A DNA stretch of 64,000 nucleotides from an uncultured Candidatus Saccharibacteria bacterium (GCA_964531475.1 CAZHCS010000002.1:4548-68547), one strand, 5' to 3'; positions 45,999-55,716 are shown, counted from the stretch's first letter. Notes: generated from the letters alone by a model not told the origin. A program made the numbers and translations.

Positions 45999-46580
45999 TC
46001 AGATGAGTTGTGTAGCTGCGAGTGACTTGTTTACTTCGCGGATTATGTTTTTCTTTGTTGCTGCAACTTTTTCCATGACTTCGCCGTTAAAAGGACTAGT
46101 GACAAAATCATGTCCAGCCTGTTCTCCCCAATAGCCGAGCGTGTGAAGAATCTTGAGCGCGAGCAAGGCTTCGACGGATTCGATGATAGCTCCGCCCAAT
46201 TTTTCTTGTGAAGTAAATTCATAAGCGGCAACCAGGTCGTCAAAGAGCGCCGGATGCGGCTCGCCCTCTGGGGCGAGCCGCATCAAGAGCTGCAAACTCC
46301 GCACGCGCGATGGTGTCGCTAGGCTTTTTTTGGAGTTTAGTTCGTGAATCGGTCGTGCGGACACCAAACGCCAGTACGTCTTGCCTTTAACAAGCGATAC
46401 ATCGATATATTTGAAATCCTGAACGAAGAACCGGAGGCGCGATTCGATTTTCCTGATTCCGGTCGCCTTGGCATGAATCACACCGAAATCTTTTGTAAAC
46501 AAATCAAAAGTCTTGTCCGCCTCCCCACTCGAGCGAGTCCTCATAACGAACGCTTCGGTGTGATAAATGGTGTGAGACAT
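45999..46580 (-). CDS. recO: DNA repair protein RecO (short form)
   Basis: N-terminal OB-fold pattern HTEAFVMRTRSSGEADKTFDLFTKDFGVIHAKATGIRKIESRLRFFVQDF... Confidence 0.55.
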   Translation of the reverse strand: MSHTIYHTEAFVMRTRSSGEADKTFDLFTKDFGVIHAKATGIRKIESRLRFFVQDFKYIDVSLVKGKTYWRLVSARPIHELNSKKSLATPSRVRSLQLLMRLAPEGEPHPALFDDLVAAYEFTSQEKLGGAIIESVEALLALKILHTLGYWGEQAGHDFVTSPFNGEVMEKVAATKKNIIREVNKSLAATQLI

Positions 46581-49500
46581 TATTTTGATATCTTCACTTC
46601 TTCCCCACCAAATGAAATATCTTTGATACCCGCAGTTTTCTTGAGTTCGTCTTCGAATCCGGTAATCACGTCTTTTTGGTTCTCTGGGATAGTGAGGCTG
46701 ACCATTTCACTTGGCAAAAGATTTTGGTCTTTGCGCATACCCTGCACACCCCGCAAGAATTCTCGAAAATCGCCTTCGCGTTTGAGTTCAGGAGTTATTT
46801 CCGTATCCAGAAAGACTCCTGGTTTTTCTTCTCCTAGATTTTCCAGAACAACATTTTTCACATTTATCTCATCAGCGATGATTTCGGTTACTTCATTCCA
46901 AAAAGGAATAGATCCGAAATCATGCTTTATAGAAAGCTTAGAAAGAGGTTGTCGAACTTTAATACCTGATTTTTGTCTCTGTTCAAGCCCCATTGTTACA
47001 AAGTTCCTCGCATGTTGCATGGTCGCTAATATTTCTGTATTAGATTTCTTCCCTTCTGGCCACTTGGCAAGATGCGCCGATTCTTCATCACGTTCGTTGC
47101 GCAGTGTTTGCCAAATATCTTCTGCCGCGAACGGCGCGAATGGGGCCAAGAGTCTCGCAATAGTTTTTAAGACATGATACAGAGTCGCCTTGGCATCAGT
47201 ATCACCATCCTTGAGACGGTCACGAGAGCGTCGCAAGTACCAAGTAGACAAGTCGTCAATGAAATCACGCAACGCACGAACTGGCTCGAGGAGTTTGTAT
47301 GAGTTCAGGCTTTCCGTCATGGAGTTCGTGAGCTCATTGAGCCGCTCAAGGATCCAGATATCGAGCACGTTGTGAGTGGCTAGTGAATAGTGACTAGCTT
47401 CTAGTGAACGATCGCGATAGAGTTCGTAGAACGCCAGCACGTTATAAAGCAGATTGAATACTTTGTTGCGAAGCTCTGCAACAGTTTTCTCATCGAAATT
47501 CTTTGAATCGCCCGGTTGATTGACCGAATACATCCAGAGGCGCAGCGTATCGACGCCGTACTTATCCATCATCTCCCACGGGTTGACGATGTTACCGATA
47601 GACTTACTCATCTTCTTGCCTTTGGCATCGAGAATATGCCCGAGACAAATGCAGTTTTTGTAAGCCTTGCCTTTACCCATGAGCGCGCCCACGGCGTGAA
47701 GCGTATAGAACCAGCCACGCGTCTGATCGACAGCTTCGGAAATAAAGTCTGCCGGATAACCCCTGCCTTTCGAGAGGAATCCGCCATCAATATACTTCTT
47801 GTTCTCGAACGGATAGTGATGTTGCGCGAATGGCATAGCGCCAGAGTCGAACCAAACATCCATGACTTCTTTTACACGACGGAATTCCTTGCCATCCTTT
47901 TCGAGCACAATGTCATCGATAAACGGACGGTGAAGATCGAGCTCTCTACTTGTCGAATTATCAACGTAGGCCTTTAAAATTTTTCCGTTATCTATCTGGT
48001 GGAACAATTTCATCGCTTCGTGATTATCGAGCCCGCGTAAAAGCTTGAACGCTATTTCATTCGTCCCCTGATGAGCAAAACAAACGATCGTTTTGCCAGC
48101 GTATTTCACCAACACCTCATCGAGGAAATTTTTTACTCGCGCTTCAAGGTCGGCCCAGCTTTCGCCAGTGTCACCACGTTTTACCAAAAATCTTTCATCT
48201 GTCGGCAATGCCTTGTACGCATCACGCGAAGCTTTGATTGCCGGATCATCTTGTGTCTGTTCTTCCCAGTTACCACTCTGTATCTCTCCGAGACGATCAT
48301 CAATGACAATATCAGCACTATCTGCATAAGCGCTTGCTGTCTGTCGGGAGCGCAGAATCGGTGAAGAAAATATAATGTCTGGTTTCTCGTCAGCCAATTT
48401 TTCTGCTGCTTCGGCTGCCTGCTTGCGACCAAGGGCTGTCAGCGGATGCTTGTCATGAGCAGAAGACGACATACGCATAACATTGTGTTCGGCCTCGCCA
48501 TGACGAACAAAAATTATCTTTGTGATTGACTGTTTTGAATAGGCCCGCAATGTTTCGACAGAATCAACAACCAATCGCTCCCCGTCCTCGCTCATCCAGA
48601 CCGGCAACGGCGTACCCCAATAACGCTCGCGCGAAATTGCCCAGTCTTTGATGTCTTTGAGCCACTCGCCGAAACGGCCATCACGAATATGAGACGGCTC
48701 CCAATTGATCGATTTATTTTCCTCTACCATTTCGTCGCGAAGTTCCGACATGCGGATGTACCACGAATCACGGGCGTAGTAGACAAGCGGCGTCTTGCAG
48801 CGCCAACAATGCGGGTATGTGTGTTCGTAATTTTTCTTGGCATAAAAGAGTCCGCGCGCAGTCAGGTCGTTGATGACGTCGACTGCAAGCGTCGGTTTAC
48901 CATTCTCGTCTTTTTCCATGGCGAACCTGCCAGAAAAGAATCCGGTGTTTGGTAGAAATTTACCATCGAGTCCGACAACGTGTTCTTTTGGAAGCCCTGC
49001 TTTCGTACCAAGCTCGAAGTCATCCTGGCCGTACATCGGCGCAATGTGAACAATGCCCGTACCGTCAACGGTTGTAACAAAATCGGCAACATAAACTTTG
49101 TGAGATTTGTCGTTTGGCTTGACGAAGTCATAGAGCGGCGCGTATTCCATTCCAGCCATCTCACTTCCCTTGTGTTCGGCGATGATTTCGTACGGTTCGG
49201 CGATGACCGAGAGGCGCTCTTTGGCAACAACTAAAATTTCTTCGCCCACTTTGGCTTCAACATAATCGATATCTGCACCGACAGCGAGCGCGACGTTCCC
49301 CGGAAGCGTCCACGGTGTCGTCGTCCAGGCGACGAAGTATGCTTTGACGAAACCTTTGATCGGAAACTTCGCAAAGATCGAGAGGTCTTTGACGTCTTCA
49401 TAACCCTGCGCGAGTTCATGACTTGCAAGTGGTGTTCCGCAGCGCGAACACCACGGTACGATACGGTAGTCTTTGTACAAAAGTCCGCGCTTCTCTACAT

Positions 49501-49993
49501 GTGCAAGCACACTCCAAAGCGATTCTATATACGAGTTATTGAAAGTGAAGTACGCATTCTTCTTGTCGACCCAATAGCCGATACGGTCGGTGAAGTCTTC
49601 CCAATCTTTTATGTATTCGAAAACAGAGTCCTTGCACTCTTTGTTGAATTTGCCGATGCCGTAGTCTTCGATAGCTTTTTTGGAATTAAGTCCAAGCTTC
49701 TTTTCAATCTGAAGCTCTACCGGCAAGCCATGCGTGTCCCAGCCGCCCTGACGGCGAACATGAAAGCCCTGCATCGTTTTATAACGAGGGATTACGTCCT
49801 TGAAAGCGCGGGCTTCCAGGTGATGGAGCGCGGGCTTGGCATTGGCCGTTGGCGGACCTTCGAAAAAGACAAATTCGCCCTCCGGAGATTCCTTTGTCAG
49901 AGTTTTTTCGAAAATCTTGTTATCCTGCCAAAATTTCAGGATTCGCTCTTCGCGAAGCGCCGCGTCGGATTTAGAGGGTTTTTCGTTTTCCAT
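46580..49993 (-). CDS. ileS: Isoleucyl-tRNA synthetase carrying an approximately 200-aa inserted histidine-phosphatase (PGAM-family) domain
   Basis: HIGH-region PALHHLEARAF, KMSKSIGN; insertion approximately aa 487-685 (about 47941-48535) with FVRHGEAEHN and SSPILRSRQTA signatures. Confidence 0.9.
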   Translation of the reverse strand: MENEKPSKSDAALREERILKFWQDNKIFEKTLTKESPEGEFVFFEGPPTANAKPALHHLEARAFKDVIPRYKTMQGFHVRRQGGWDTHGLPVELQIEKKLGLNSKKAIEDYGIGKFNKECKDSVFEYIKDWEDFTDRIGYWVDKKNAYFTFNNSYIESLWSVLAHVEKRGLLYKDYRIVPWCSRCGTPLASHELAQGYEDVKDLSIFAKFPIKGFVKAYFVAWTTTPWTLPGNVALAVGADIDYVEAKVGEEILVVAKERLSVIAEPYEIIAEHKGSEMAGMEYAPLYDFVKPNDKSHKVYVADFVTTVDGTGIVHIAPMYGQDDFELGTKAGLPKEHVVGLDGKFLPNTGFFSGRFAMEKDENGKPTLAVDVINDLTARGLFYAKKNYEHTYPHCWRCKTPLVYYARDSWYIRMSELRDEMVEENKSINWEPSHIRDGRFGEWLKDIKDWAISRERYWGTPLPVWMSEDGERLVVDSVETLRAYSKQSITKIIFVRHGEAEHNVMRMSSSAHDKHPLTALGRKQAAEAAEKLADEKPDIIFSSPILRSRQTASAYADSADIVIDDRLGEIQSGNWEEQTQDDPAIKASRDAYKALPTDERFLVKRGDTGESWADLEARVKNFLDEVLVKYAGKTIVCFAHQGTNEIAFKLLRGLDNHEAMKLFHQIDNGKILKAYVDNSTSRELDLHRPFIDDIVLEKDGKEFRRVKEVMDVWFDSGAMPFAQHHYPFENKKYIDGGFLSKGRGYPADFISEAVDQTRGWFYTLHAVGALMGKGKAYKNCICLGHILDAKGKKMSKSIGNIVNPWEMMDKYGVDTLRLWMYSVNQPGDSKNFDEKTVAELRNKVFNLLYNVLAFYELYRDRSLEASHYSLATHNVLDIWILERLNELTNSMTESLNSYKLLEPVRALRDFIDDLSTWYLRRSRDRLKDGDTDAKATLYHVLKTIARLLAPFAPFAAEDIWQTLRNERDEESAHLAKWPEGKKSNTEILATMQHARNFVTMGLEQRQKSGIKVRQPLSKLSIKHDFGSIPFWNEVTEIIADEINVKNVVLENLGEEKPGVFLDTEITPELKREGDFREFLRGVQGMRKDQNLLPSEMVSLTIPENQKDVITGFEDELKKTAGIKDISFGGEEVKISK

Positions 49994-52533: not shown

Positions 52534-53523
52534 TCATAAATCGGCTAGCCCCGCTTTTCGAGATAGTTTCGAAGTATTTCCATGTGACAACAGGCCTTGG
52601 TAAGAAACAATGACTTCTTCCTTGGGGTTATCTTTCAGTTTCTTGAACATCCTATTTTTAGTGGTCGTGCGCAAAACCCTGTGATCGAAGAAATGCACCC
52701 AGCCCAAGAAATCAACGCCGGAGTTGATGGTTCGTATACTGATCTTGTCAGGATGGAGCGTAAGACGTAAACGAACATCGAGAAATTCTTCTATCTTTCC
52801 AAGCAATTGCGAAAGATATCCCTTATTCTCATACAAGATCACAAAATCATCCGCATAGCGAATATAATATTTTACTCGCAGTTCGTTTTTCATATACTGA
52901 TCAAACTCATTCATGTAAACATTCACCAAAAGTTGCGAGGTGAGATTGCCGAGAGGCAATCCCCTGCCTGGAGAGGTGTTAAAACTTTTCACCACCTGAC
53001 GCACGAGCCAGATGATATCTTTGTCTTCAATATGTTTATCCAGAATCTCAAAGAGAGTTTCTTGATCGATGGAAGCGAAGAATTTTTTAATATCGCATTT
53101 CAAAACCCAAAGCGTTTTCGTATTATTTCTGCTTACCTTGTAAACGAATGAACGAAATCGTTTCAACGCCCGATGAGTCCCCTTCCATTTGCGGCAAGAG
53201 TACGAGTCAACAACAAATTTCTTATCGAAATAAGGATATAGATGCCGGTAGATAGCATGGTGAAGCAATCGGTCACGGACACTCGCTTTGTGAATATTTC
53301 TAGGCTTCGGATCGGAAATATTGAAGGCATAGTAACCGCCGTGAACATATCTTTTCGCAACCAAATCTCTGTGTAGGATCAAAATATTATCCATGAGATG
53401 GACTTGAAATTCCTGTACGTCTTTCTTGGCGCGTTTTCCTCTCACGAACTCACGCCACGCGGAAAGCAAATTCTCCGTGGAGATGATATCCTTATACCTA
53501 TGAATAAAAATATTTCGAGCCAT
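52534..53523 (-). CDS. Diversity-generating retroelement (DGR) reverse transcriptase
   Basis: RGLPLGNLTSQLLVNVYMNEFD (the DGR-type I/LGxxxSQ in RT motif 4), RYADDFVI (YxDD), C-terminal SYQGLLSHGNTSKLSRK; 329 aa with no maturase/X domain. Confidence 0.85.
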   Translation of the reverse strand: MARNIFIHRYKDIISTENLLSAWREFVRGKRAKKDVQEFQVHLMDNILILHRDLVAKRYVHGGYYAFNISDPKPRNIHKASVRDRLLHHAIYRHLYPYFDKKFVVDSYSCRKWKGTHRALKRFRSFVYKVSRNNTKTLWVLKCDIKKFFASIDQETLFEILDKHIEDKDIIWLVRQVVKSFNTSPGRGLPLGNLTSQLLVNVYMNEFDQYMKNELRVKYYIRYADDFVILYENKGYLSQLLGKIEEFLDVRLRLTLHPDKISIRTINSGVDFLGWVHFFDHRVLRTTTKNRMFKKLKDNPKEEVIVSYQGLLSHGNTSKLSRKAGLADL

Positions 53524-53558
53524 AAAAATTCAACCAATGCGCCCCCCCCCCACGGCTT

Positions 53559-53906
53559 TTGCCGGTGATCCTGAAACTGAAAGATGCTTATGGAGTATGG
53601 CAAGGATATTGCGCCCACTTCCCTAAAGCAAATCGCTTCACGCTTGGAAGCAAGATCGATTCCGTATTTCTTGAAAGCATAGAGTCTTCTTTTGTCGCCA
53701 GTTATTCCGTCGGACAAGTAAAGTTGAATCATGTTGAGAGCACTATTACGAAAACGGATCTTTTAAAGCTCCTCTTGCAATTGGCTTGGGAAACGAAGGC
53801 GATCGACAACAATAAATATATTCATTTGAGCGAACTCTTAGCCGAAGTCGGCAAGATGCTCGGAGGCTGGAAACGGCAACTGGCAAACAAAACTCCCGCC
53901 GCGTGA
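53559..53906 (+). CDS. avd: DGR accessory variability determinant (Avd; 23S-rRNA-IVS-family four-helix bundle), opposite strand to the RT/TR/VR
   Basis: C-terminal LAEVGKMLGGWKRQ matches the Avd hallmark (compare bAvd IAEVGRILGSW); 115 aa; only a TTG/GTG start is available. Confidence 0.7.
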   Translation: MPVILKLKDAYGVWQGYCAHFPKANRFTLGSKIDSVFLESIESSFVASYSVGQVKLNHVESTITKTDLLKLLLQLAWETKAIDNNKYIHLSELLAEVGKMLGGWKRQLANKTPAA

Positions 53907-53930
53907 TTGTCGACGGGAGAACCGTAGGAG

Positions 53931-54062
53931 TTGCGAACGCCGAGGAAGCGGTAGTTGCGATTCCAGTCATTGTCGAACCAATTCAGGTTCAGGTTACGCT
54001 TCGAATCGTTCCTGTTGAGGTAAGCCACGTTGCGGTTGCCATTGATCTTGGCCACGGAGCCA
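53931..54062 (-). repeat. DGR template repeat (TR), 132 bp
   Basis: Matches 54401-54532 at 112/132 positions; 19 of 20 mismatches have A on the minus strand in this copy; the VR reading frame translated over TR gives Asn-rich VAYLNRNDSKRNLNLNWFDNDWNRNYRFLG. Confidence 0.85.
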
Positions 54063-54305
54063 TGTGTGACGCGCCATCTAGTTCACCACCCTTCGAGTCG
54101 GAGAAACTGAAAACCCTCAAGGCTGAATCGTATTCGCAACCTTATATGTTGCAGAGCATGTCACACCAACTTTTCTCTGGTTTTTGTTCTGAATTCCTCC
54201 TGACACTCTTTTGAAAACCGTGGCCTTCAAAACTCTCGCCAAGAGGCATGCGGACAAATTACCCAAAGCCGTGACCTTAGATTTCTCATTTGTCGAAATT
54301 ATTGT

Positions 54306-54343
54306 AGCAAAAACGCAAAGCCGGCGCACAGAGTGCGCCGGCA
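54306..54343 (-). terminator. GC hairpin plus T-run 55 nt downstream of VR (terminator; also a candidate homing-enhancing stem-loop)
   Basis: gccggcgcac-tct-gtgcgccggc followed on the minus strand by TTTGCGTTTTTGC. Confidence 0.6.
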
Positions 54344-54396
54344 AGTTCCAAGGGTCCAAGTGCCAAGGACGAATCCAAGGCTCAAGGACCAGAGAA

Positions 54397-54999
54397 CTAT
54401 TTGCGACCGCCGAGGAAGCGGTAGTAGCGACTCCAGTCATCGTCGAACCAATGCAGGAGCAGGAAACGCTCCGAACCGCGCCTGCTGAGGCAAGCCACGC
54501 TGCGGTCGCCACCGATCTCGGCCACGGAGCCGAGTGCCACGATCGGGTACTTCCGCTGTTCTTCGGGCAAGGCTGCGCCATACGCAAGGAGCTCCTCGAT
54601 CTTGGCTGGCCGGAACCCGTCCTTCTCCATCTCTTTGATCGCGTTCTCCGAAGAGATGTCGCGGTCGAAGTGGAAGAGTTTGGGTTCGAAACCCACTTTG
54701 CCGGTGCCGGACAGCGGGAAGCGCTTCGCCGTGATGTCGTCGTTCTTCCAGTCGTAGTTGCCGGCGGCGATCATCTGCTCGAGCGTCATGCCATAGTCCA
54801 CGAAGAACTTCATGTCGAGCGGCGAGAGGTTGAGCACCTTGCGCAGCGCTTCACGATCGATCTGCGTCGGATCGGCTTCGATGAGGTCAGCGAGCGAGCC
54901 GTTCGTGAGCAAGGATTGGAATCCTTGATGGTCCTTGCCTTTTGCTTCGAGCAATGTGGCGAGGCTGGCCAGTTGGCCTGAAGTGAATGCGGTTTTCAT
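54397..54999 (-). CDS. DGR target (variable) protein with C-terminal VR
   Basis: 200 aa; C-terminus ...VACLSRRGSERFLLLHWFDDDWSRYYRFLGGRK* encoded by VR; the stop codon lies at the VR 3' boundary. Confidence 0.8.
   Translation of the reverse strand: MKTAFTSGQLASLATLLEAKGKDHQGFQSLLTNGSLADLIEADPTQIDREALRKVLNLSPLDMKFFVDYGMTLEQMIAAGNYDWKNDDITAKRFPLSGTGKVGFEPKLFHFDRDISSENAIKEMEKDGFRPAKIEELLAYGAALPEEQRKYPIVALGSVAEIGGDRSVACLSRRGSERFLLLHWFDDDWSRYYRFLGGRK
54401..54532 (-). repeat. DGR variable repeat (VR), 132 bp, inside the 3' end of the target gene
   Basis: See the TR entry; substitutions occur only where TR has adenine on the coding strand. Confidence 0.85.
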
Positions 55000-55194
55000 C
55001 GGACTTGTGGTCTTTTGAATCTACTCCCGAAGGGTAGCGTGCTATTCTCCTCTCCCGAATGGGCGGTTTGGCATAGCTTTGAAACTTCAATGATGTAAAG
55101 CCTCAAAGCTATGCCAAATTTCGCAAATAGTTCAGTTTTGAAGAACGATTTTTACCTGTCCATTATAACATATGACAAGTCATTTTGTCAATAG

Positions 55195-55716
55195 CTACAT
55201 CTTCCTCGTATCATACGCCCAGTGAAGTAACGCCTGACGTTGGCGGGGACGGCACGTAGCGTCGCCCGGGCGGCAATTGGCCGCGATTTGGCCAAGGTGC
55301 CGGCGGATGGCATTCCAGCGTTTGATCTGCCGTGCGTCTTCCTTGGGGATCCTGCGGCCCATGTAATAGCGGCAATACCATTGGAACCAGCCGCGAGGGT
55401 CGTCACGGTAAATCCAGCCCTTTCGGCGCCATTCGGCGAGCGGCTGGCTTGCGTTCACTTTGAAATGATTGAGCTTGGCGTCGCGCTTGCCTTCGCCCGG
55501 CTTGCCAGGCGCAAACTTGGCTTTCGTGAACCACGATTTCGGGAATTCCTTGGTGCAGTCGCGCATGTAGATGCCGCCGAAGACGCCGATGGCGAGCATC
55601 TCGGCTGGAGTCAAATCCGGCCGGAAATCCGGCGAGAAATTCTTTCCGGCCGGTTCGGTCAGTTCGTATTCGTAACCCTTTTGCATCAGGTCATTGACGA
55701 CAACACGTTTTTTCAT
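55195..55716 (-). CDS. Conserved hypothetical protein (Trp/Arg-rich motif GWIYRDDPRGWFQWYCRYYMGRR)
   Basis: 173-aa ORF; family not recognised. Confidence 0.45.
   Translation of the reverse strand: MKKRVVVNDLMQKGYEYELTEPAGKNFSPDFRPDLTPAEMLAIGVFGGIYMRDCTKEFPKSWFTKAKFAPGKPGEGKRDAKLNHFKVNASQPLAEWRRKGWIYRDDPRGWFQWYCRYYMGRRIPKEDARQIKRWNAIRRHLGQIAANCRPGDATCRPRQRQALLHWAYDTRKM

Follow-up and report, generated by a model that had tools for sequence, protein, structure and literature searches.

The stretch of DNA analyzed here (the window) comprises 64,000 nucleotides (nt) from an uncultured Candidatus Saccharibacteria bacterium (GCA_964531475.1, CAZHCS010000002.1:4548-68547), with positions counted from its first letter, and carries a diversity-generating retroelement (DGR) at 52534-54999. 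The cassette is laid out as a target gene with its variable repeat (VR), a terminator, a promoter, a structured leader, the template repeat (TR), a second terminator, a reversed avd gene, a simple-sequence repeat and a reverse transcriptase (RT) gene. A DGR-type RT, an Avd protein and an adenine-specific TR/VR pair are established from the sequence and its comparison with related loci, and it can be said with high confidence that the element is a genuine, complete chromosomal DGR of the Patescibacteria type that has been active recently in its lineage. An initial annotation of the window had also read a complete DGR at this position, and that reading was borne out; the avd gene, the RNA leader with its promoter, the terminator after TR and the C10 tract had been missed.

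The TR (53931-54061) and the VR (54401-54531), both on the minus strand and delimited by a gapless repeat alignment, form the largest direct repeat in the region between 50 and 58 kb. Ungapped, they match at 111 of 131 positions, and 19 of the 20 mismatches fall on minus-strand adenines of TR, which account for 35 of its 131 bases (hypergeometric P = 2e-12). The repeats had been described as 132 bp long with 112 matching positions; the repeat is real, and the first position of the 132-nt frame (54062/54532) is a T/C mismatch, giving 21 mismatches in 132 nt and a clean repeat of 131 nt. The confinement of all mismatches except one to TR adenines stood as first described, as did the asparagine-rich reading of TR, in whose frame 11 of the 43 codons are AAY. 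The 35 TR adenines are distributed over codon positions 1, 2 and 3 as 16, 19 and 0. No further VR-like copy is present in the 64-kb window, where the next-best candidate matches at 47 of 96 non-adenine positions as against 95 of 96 for VR. The lone non-adenine mismatch (54407; G in VR, T in TR) had been attributed to a difference between the initiation of mutagenic homing (IMH) site and its IMH* counterpart. That attribution did not hold: because the base is T in both sister assemblies (L084 and L085), in TR and in the family consensus GVRK, the change appears to be private to the window rather than a conserved IMH/IMH* mark. Across the family alignment, the VR region consists of discrete hypervariable positions on an invariant scaffold.

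The RT gene (52534-53523, minus strand) encodes a protein of 329 amino acids with the motifs LGNLTSQ and YADD and a match to Pfam RVT_1 (7.5e-23). The signature of DGR RTs has been defined as [I/V/L]GxxxSQ (PMC7826257), and the RT of the window has LGxxxSQ, not QGxxxSP. No maturase or endonuclease domain was detected in the protein with Pfam and no intron RNA with Rfam, so that the open reading frame (ORF), its motifs and its domain content all agree with the short, maturase-less RT first described. In a search of the PDB, the best solved relative was 8ub7_A, an RT chain of 328 residues (E 3e-42), with group II intron RTs and crystallized 'retron-type' RTs giving weaker matches of ~2e-22. From its length, its IGSLTSQ motif and its residue numbering, 8ub7_A is taken here to be the Bordetella phage DGR RT (bRT); its PDB code was not found in the bRT paper. 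Residue R75 aligns with bRT R74 and L191 with bRT I181, with which [I/V/L]GxxxSQ begins, and adenine mutagenesis by bRT is promoted at both of these positions.

Assemblies from other samples bear directly on the activity of the element. Two of these (L084 and L085) encode an RT protein identical to that of the window and carry an identical TR, and together with the window they present three VR alleles. L085 differs from the window at 17 of 131 VR nucleotides, 16 of them at TR-adenine sites, with a single change across the other 467 nt of the target, an unchanged TR and three substitutions from TR through RT, while L084 has 21 VR differences, 18 at TR-adenine sites. In a sister lineage whose RT is 76% identical, L086 and L087 share the same TR and differ at 18 VR positions, 17 of these at TR adenines, and at none of 1,973 other nucleotides. 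Since genomes with one and the same TR carry VR alleles that diverge at TR-adenine sites, these assemblies indicate that the element has recently rewritten its target gene in this lineage; variation across populations at the adenine-templated positions, on which the initial annotation had made a functional element depend, is present in the two sister assemblies (16 of 17 and 18 of 21 differences). L084 (SRR25679424) is of additional interest in that its TR, avd and RT are nearly identical to those of the window (2 substitutions in ~2.4 kb), with about 80 differences over 54549-55369, which affect the final part of the upstream gene and two thirds of the target, counted from its N-terminus. This pattern suggests recombination that either swapped the front end of the target or moved the RT-avd-TR module.

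The avd gene lies on the plus strand, between TR and the RT gene, from which it diverges; the start codons of the two genes are 14-35 nt apart. Read from a TTG codon at 53559, it extends over 53559-53906 and encodes 115 amino acids. The product matches Pfam bAvd (7.7e-14; 52.5 bits, over the 40-bit cut-off) and, over its full length, NCBIfam DivGenRetAVD (2.1e-17; 63.3 bits, below the 80-bit cut-off). A scan of species-representative genomes yielded 80 loci, the titles of which mostly denote metagenome-assembled genomes (MAGs) of the Patescibacteria group or of 'uncultured Candidatus Saccharibacteria' (one automated MAG series), with a few other labels. The same cassette is present in the same order in 37 of the 80 (target, TR 270-480 nt downstream, reversed avd, RT); in all except two of these, the avd alignment stops 23-35 nt past the 132-nt TR frame, and the TR/VR mismatches of the 37 are overwhelmingly at adenines. 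The avd gene is reversed in each of the 37, and likewise in 68 of 68 loci from an independent metagenome set that was fetched by RT homology and contained 70 usable loci. The other 43 species-level loci (L004, L013, L018, L020, L021 and about 38 others) contain a target homologue but neither RT nor Avd in the 5 kb to each side of it, and may represent remote targets of a DGR located elsewhere, or frozen copies. Two MAGs have two such copies each (L018/L075 and L079/L081).

The target gene (54397-54999, minus strand) encodes a protein of 200 amino acids, of which residues 157-200, the last 44, are specified by VR, as the initial annotation had it. The protein has no sequence match in Pfam, NCBIfam or the PDB, and none to FGE-sulfatase or DUF1566 models. 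The absence of an obvious signal peptide was confirmed and extends to lipoboxes and transmembrane segments; in 19-residue windows the hydropathy is not transmembrane-like in the target, where it peaks at 1.2, nor in 115 of 116 members of the family. The target has at least 399 homologues, of ~200-215 amino acids and none with a Pfam domain, and the few that are named by source are from MAGs of Patescibacteria, Parcubacteria or Adlerbacteria. When 1.84 billion cluster representatives were searched with a profile, 7,195 matched at E<=1e-3 and 1,199 at E<=1e-30, with the conserved unit of the family spanning profile positions ~62-205. AlphaFold2, supplied with 116 homologues, modeled the target with a predicted local distance difference test score of 91 as four short N-terminal helices and an alpha/beta domain from about residue 62. 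All top Foldseek matches to the model are C-type lectin domains, with weak E-values, and a C-type-lectin fold is predicted for the variable domain, in line with the lectin-like C-terminus previously suggested. Some family members (P0244, P0245, P0249, P0252 and P0352; 320-490 amino acids) contain two or three tandem lectin-fold modules of ~140 amino acids. Upstream of the target, at 55162-55191 (minus strand), is a sigma-70-type promoter sequence, TTGACA-18-TATAAT with TG before the -10 hexamer, that matches the consensus at 12 of 12 positions and is the only perfect consensus site in the region. Lying ~160 nt upstream of the start codon, it is likely to function as the target promoter. The implied 5' untranslated region holds an inverted repeat with 21-nt arms (55067-55118), and an Rfam search of 55000-55191 gave nothing beyond a chance-level microRNA match. 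Base composition over 54397-55716 is distinctive: the target has 59.5% GC and the upstream 173-residue ORF, which has no family match, 58%, both well above the RT gene (41%) and the window average (48%).

Between VR and avd, several features delimit what appears to be a separate RNA. A perfect 10-bp stem with a 3-nt loop (54342-54320) begins 58 nt after VR and is followed by TTTGCGTTTT, and a consensus scan marks the whole (54310-54342, minus strand) as a terminator-like GC hairpin with a T-rich tail. Comparable GC hairpins lie 32-84 nt past VR in about 18 of 38 cassettes. The hairpin looks first of all like the intrinsic terminator of the target gene and is possibly also a homing aid. Homing hairpins of phages have a 4-nt GRNA loop and occur 4-34 bp after VR (PMC3240598), and Wu et al. 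(2018; PMC5758913) recorded such repeats in just 34% of DGRs. The initial annotation, which placed the hairpin 55 nt from VR and proposed it as both terminator and homing structure, was right about the perfect stem and its terminator-like character; the distance is 58 nt, and the structure is unlike the phage homing hairpins. Directly after the tail comes an extended -10 element, TGCTACAAT (54301-54309, minus strand), at a conserved position: a TAnnnT hexamer, often preceded by TGn, stands at a fixed -29/-30 from the P1 anchor, a conserved sequence downstream of it, in 23 of the 29 related loci that have the anchor, the exceptions being the subgroup L038/L055/L058/L065/L073 and L017, which has a weaker context. 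Transcription of the TR RNA would thus start near 54294.

Across 34 loci, the 230 nt between the TGCTACAAT site and TR are far better conserved than expected of intergenic DNA, and covariation in their alignment points to a structured RNA leader 5' of TR (54064-54281, minus strand). Its helices, all read on the minus strand, are P1 (54281-54262), P2 (54244-54198), P4 (54151-54137), P5 (54123-54088) and the long-range helix P3, in which 54166-54155 pairs with 54075-54064 and closes the domain 2-3 nt before TR. RNAalifold assigned 44 pairs in six helices. Paired alignment cells amount to 93.3%, compared with 42-49% when the partners are slid by 1-3 columns; compensatory double changes occur in 37 of the 44 pairs, and none of 500 shuffles reached the observed values. 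The window and 13 related loci gave no match that attains the gathering score of an Rfam family. Helix P2 aligned with the first hairpin alone of Rfam RT-7 (RF03028), with compensatory stem changes, and membership in that family was rejected at 23.3 bits against a gathering score of 116.8.

On the other side of TR, a hairpin (53919-53893) with the tail TTTTGTTT (53892-53885) forms a second terminator-like element (53885-53919, minus strand) 11 nt after TR (about 10-14 nt among loci), overlapping the avd stop codon on the opposite strand. After TR, 34 of 35 loci have a stable hairpin and then a T-run, the inner sequence of the stem varying from locus to locus; these hairpins were called by per-sequence folding, and RNAalifold on an unstructured MAFFT alignment of the region gave 5 pairs only. 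The DGR RNA may consequently be a discrete transcript of ~400 nt, from ~54294 to 53885. It was also considered whether the 3' end of TR might pair with the leader (GTTGCGAA in the window); this was dropped, as by eye the pairing did not recur in L005, the sole other locus compared.

The junction of avd and RT is occupied by a simple-sequence repeat (53542-53551) that reads C10 in the direction of avd and G10 in that of RT; the window has no other G/C run as long. Its first base is 2 nt past an ATG codon (53538-53540), and its other end lies 18 nt upstream of the codon at which RT starts. In DNA that is otherwise near-identical, the tract is C9 in L001 and L084, C10 in the window and A+C12 in L085. 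With C9, the ATG at 53538 is in frame and yields an Avd of 122 amino acids starting MRPPPRLLPVILK; with the C10 of the window and the A+C12 of L085 it is out of frame. Repeats at this position are the rule among relatives. The junction has poly-C of 8-13 nt in 28 of 38 genome cassettes and (GA)n of 14-35 nt in another 7 (35 of 38), and within 718 kb of genome loci all 27 G/C runs of at least 8 nt and 7 of 8 dinucleotide repeats are at avd/RT junctions. Among the 70 metagenome loci, 59 have a G run of at least 8 nt upstream of RT and 5 have dinucleotide repeats (64 of 70). Overall, 99 of 108 related cassettes have a repeat at the junction, and the rest of those loci is almost free of such repeats. 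Because the target family of the window occurs in only 9 of the 70 metagenome loci, the tract, on the sequences compared, belongs to the RT/Avd clade and not to the target.

When read in the avd frame, the tract encodes prolines (PPP); next come the conserved residues R/K-L-I-P-V or Q-P-K-L-I-P-V, whose codons vary synonymously, and in four loci with GA repeats the upstream ATG is in frame despite repeat lengths of 14, 22, 25 and 35 nt. Since residues are conserved through synonymous changes and the ATG is kept in frame, the repeat is, by this comparative evidence, situated inside the translated 5' end of avd. Its length is labile: among cassettes at least 99.4% identical, it differs in 7 of 14 pairs, representing three of four lineages, as between L039 and L041 (C10 versus C9, with 0 mismatches in 1,345 nt) or L137 and L152 (C9 versus C8).

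Simple-sequence contingency loci of Neisseria, Campylobacter and Haemophilus undergo phase variation by slipped-strand mispairing. It is conceivable, if somewhat short of probable, that DGR mutagenesis in this clade is phase-variable in the same manner, slippage of the tract setting the avd frame as a heritable and reversible on/off switch. Under this phase-variation reading, about two thirds of the genomes, including that of the window (C10), could tentatively be assigned to the out-of-frame phase. Because C10 leaves the ATG at 53538 out of frame and only the TTG at 53559 available, we think that the window element, part of a system that is functional in other respects, is in a low or OFF phase. 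If phase variation does operate, the out-of-frame phase would freeze a selected VR allele until slippage restored the frame, and a hypermutable repeat at the start of avd would offer a testable idea of how cells avoid overwriting a useful variant. No papers linking simple repeats, homopolymers, phase variation or slippage to DGRs were found, the key paper on DGRs of the candidate phyla radiation (CPR) being outside the coverage of the search. Two further observations concern relatives with unusual junctions. In the sister lineage, the tract is C10 in all of L086-L089; in this phase the avd frame is cut off by a TAA immediately 5' of it, and no avd was called; the VRs of these loci differ at 18 positions without other change despite the out-of-frame C10 phase. 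In L090 (1339-1746 and junction), an interrupted CCCCTCGCCGCCGCC replaces the homopolymer, in frame with an upstream ATG, and a 135-residue Avd was called; this tract looks like a fixed, non-slipping version.

Other explanations of the locus differ greatly in plausibility. That the RT derives from a group II intron, a retron or a defense system, and that the 131-nt repeat is an ordinary diverged duplication, finds an echo in NCBIfam, where the best RT match is a group II intron RT/maturase model (143.9 bits against a 300-bit cut-off) and no DGR-RT model was returned. This explanation is already effectively refuted and has almost no chance of being correct, given an RT far closer to 8ub7_A, the presumed phage DGR RT, than to group II and retron-type RTs, an LGxxxSQ motif without maturase or endonuclease domain or intron RNA, a TR/VR pair with 19 of 20 mismatches at adenines and an Avd gene adjoining the RT. 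Placement among group II or retron RTs was the outcome that the initial annotation had expected to weaken its case, and the placement came out for a DGR. An inactive relic, in which a once-working DGR is now frozen in this genome, is a less extreme proposition, yet still very unlikely. It would accord with an avd ATG that is out of frame at C10, with three Logan assemblies of one sample series (SRR13355620-22) that are identical to the window across target and VR, and with the non-adenine change at 54407 in VR, which TR would overwrite only if homing reached that far. Against a relic, RT, Avd and TR are intact, all 35 TR adenines are still at codon positions 1-2, an in-frame TTG start is available for avd, a one-base change in the tract restores the ATG frame, and in other samples the same RT and TR accompany three VR alleles with almost no other substitutions.

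The nature of the tract is harder to decide. Instead of a switch, it may be a fixed functional element, serving as a spacer of an RT promoter, as a poly-proline or Arg-Glu linker at the N-terminus of Avd, or as a slippage site for RNA polymerase or the ribosome; in the slippage variant, every tract length yields some Avd and the frame is unimportant. A fixed element of this kind has a real, if less than even, likelihood. Consistent with it, only 32 of 88 poly-C loci (36%) are in frame with an upstream start at their observed length, no more than when lengths are shifted by one, and in the poly-G class the tract is invariably situated 9-23 nt 5' of where RT starts. As a promoter spacer would have it, 13 of 87 loci show TTGnnn-N7/8-Gn-TAnnnT on the RT strand, the spacers being 15-19 nt long, and 26 of 87 have TAnnnT directly after the tract; this promoter-like context is nevertheless missing from most loci, including the window, and is confined to a subclade. 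A fixed tract also sits poorly with the unrelated repeats that share the position (poly-C, and GA, TC or GT dinucleotides on either strand), which argue for selection on repetitiveness rather than on sequence or peptide, with differences in tract length between cassettes otherwise 99.5-100% identical, and with L090, where an interrupted, fixed version in frame with a 135-residue Avd does exist.

The reading of the locus as a working DGR with a phase-variable avd has several points against it. The avd ATG of the window is out of frame at C10. Tract lengths are assembly consensus calls, in which short-read homopolymer miscalls are possible, and an in-frame share of 36% fits a randomly phased switch and a frame-irrelevant tract equally. 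There is no consensus-level VR variation within the SRR13355620-22 population. No clear RT promoter was found in the window, and if the DGR RNA terminates after TR, expression of RT is unexplained without read-through. Finally, the priming site and start of the cDNA are not readable from the sequence, and the 140-nt spacer 3' of TR that is typical of the Bordetella phage BPP-1 DGR has no counterpart in the window.

Taking these features together, a mechanism can be proposed for the element. The extended -10 promoter just past the target terminator would start a transcript of ~400 nt (~54294 to 53885) consisting of the five-helix leader, TR and the terminator hairpin. RT and Avd would bind this transcript and copy TR into cDNA, misincorporating opposite adenines and thereby varying up to 21 target residues at positions 161-200. 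The cDNA would then replace VR by homing via the conserved GC-rich 3' end of VR. The product would be a small soluble protein, lacking signal peptide and transmembrane segment, with the face of its lectin fold diversified for ligand binding. The poly-C tract in the 5' coding region of avd would gate Avd expression, C9 placing the ATG in frame and C10 leaving the TTG only.

Beyond the cassette, the DGR is followed on the same strand by msrA and argS. The initial annotation had described the whole cassette as co-oriented with these genes and abutting them; the avd gene, which it had missed, lies on the opposite strand. The nearest named relatives of the arginyl-tRNA synthetase are Patescibacteria and Nomurabacteria proteins at ~61-62% identity, a host group that agrees with clade 2 of the DGR classification discussed below. 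Further away, the isoleucyl-tRNA synthetase gene (46580-49993, minus strand; 1,137 amino acids) has a histidine-phosphatase domain (His_Phos_1; residues 493-677, E 5.5e-36) that splits the halves of the catalytic domain.

In several respects the junction tract resembles the contingency loci of Neisseria, Campylobacter and Haemophilus. In both, a coding region carries at its 5' end a dinucleotide repeat or a run of G/C (8-13 nt), the repetitive character of which is conserved and the length of which differs among near-identical genomes. The gated genes of contingency loci encode surface antigens or restriction-modification systems, whereas that of the window is part of a mutagenesis machine; in addition, the window tract is known from assembled sequence of an uncultured Patescibacterium and its switching is putative. 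A different comparison is offered by RT-7 and RT-10, RNA motifs found next to RT genes, the latter in the BPP-1 spacer (Weinberg et al., 2017; PMC5737381). Like these, the leader of the window is an RNA structure adjoining an RT gene, although its score lies far under the RT-7 threshold. Compared with Mtd and with TvpA of Treponema denticola, the target domain of the window is much smaller (~140 amino acids) and is without an FGE-sulfatase or DUF1566 match, signal peptide, lipobox or transmembrane segment. A family of ~7,200 cluster representatives that lacks sequence matches in Pfam, NCBIfam and solved structures can now be predicted to adopt a minimal C-type-lectin fold without an export signal, and this sharpens the question of whether these DGRs diversify intracellular binding proteins.

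The DGR of BPP-1 (mtd-avd-TR-brt) has in common with the window element an RT with [I/V/L]GxxxSQ and a fingertip arginine, an Avd protein, a TR of ~130 nt that is transferred, with changes specific to adenines, to a VR at the C-terminus, a variable domain of C-type-lectin fold (predicted in the window) and a GC hairpin downstream of VR. It differs in that avd of the window is on the opposite strand, between TR and RT, and in that the window hairpin lies 58 nt after VR with a 3-nt loop. The window element is chromosomal, in a cellular genome, and its target is a 200-residue soluble protein rather than the tip of a tail fiber. In the phage model, the 140-nt spacer 3' of TR supplies the primer and most of the protein contacts; the window has no such spacer, its terminator hairpin following TR after 11 nt, and has instead a large RNA structure 5' of TR. 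The apparent RNA unit, bounded by promoter and terminator and with its conserved structure 5' of TR, departs from the phage model and provides a defined RNA for reconstitution.

The closest known systems are the DGRs of the CPR. The order TR-(avd)-RT with avd on the reverse strand, as found in the window, is architecture B3, which makes up 90% of the CPR DGR set of Wu et al. (2018; PMC5758913), and a Patescibacteria-restricted DGR clade (clade 2), with targets lacking recognizable transmembrane or conserved domains, was described by Roux et al. (2021; PMC8144416). Because its B3 order and Patescibacteria host match these accounts, the window element is a further member of a documented kind, with a host group that is also well documented. 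As a DGR it adds one case to a system recognized as frequent in ultra-small bacteria that depend on hosts, and its value resides more in the RNA unit with the covarying leader, the target family with a minimal predicted lectin fold and no export signal, and the conserved hypermutable tract of avd. It shares with the CPR DGRs their gene order, orientation and host, shows no architectural difference from the B3 elements and, as in clade 2, has a target without recognizable transmembrane or conserved domains. The predicted lectin fold of the target, the covarying leader 5' of TR, the terminator after TR and the repeat tract at the avd/RT junction go beyond what the accessible literature on CPR DGRs describes.

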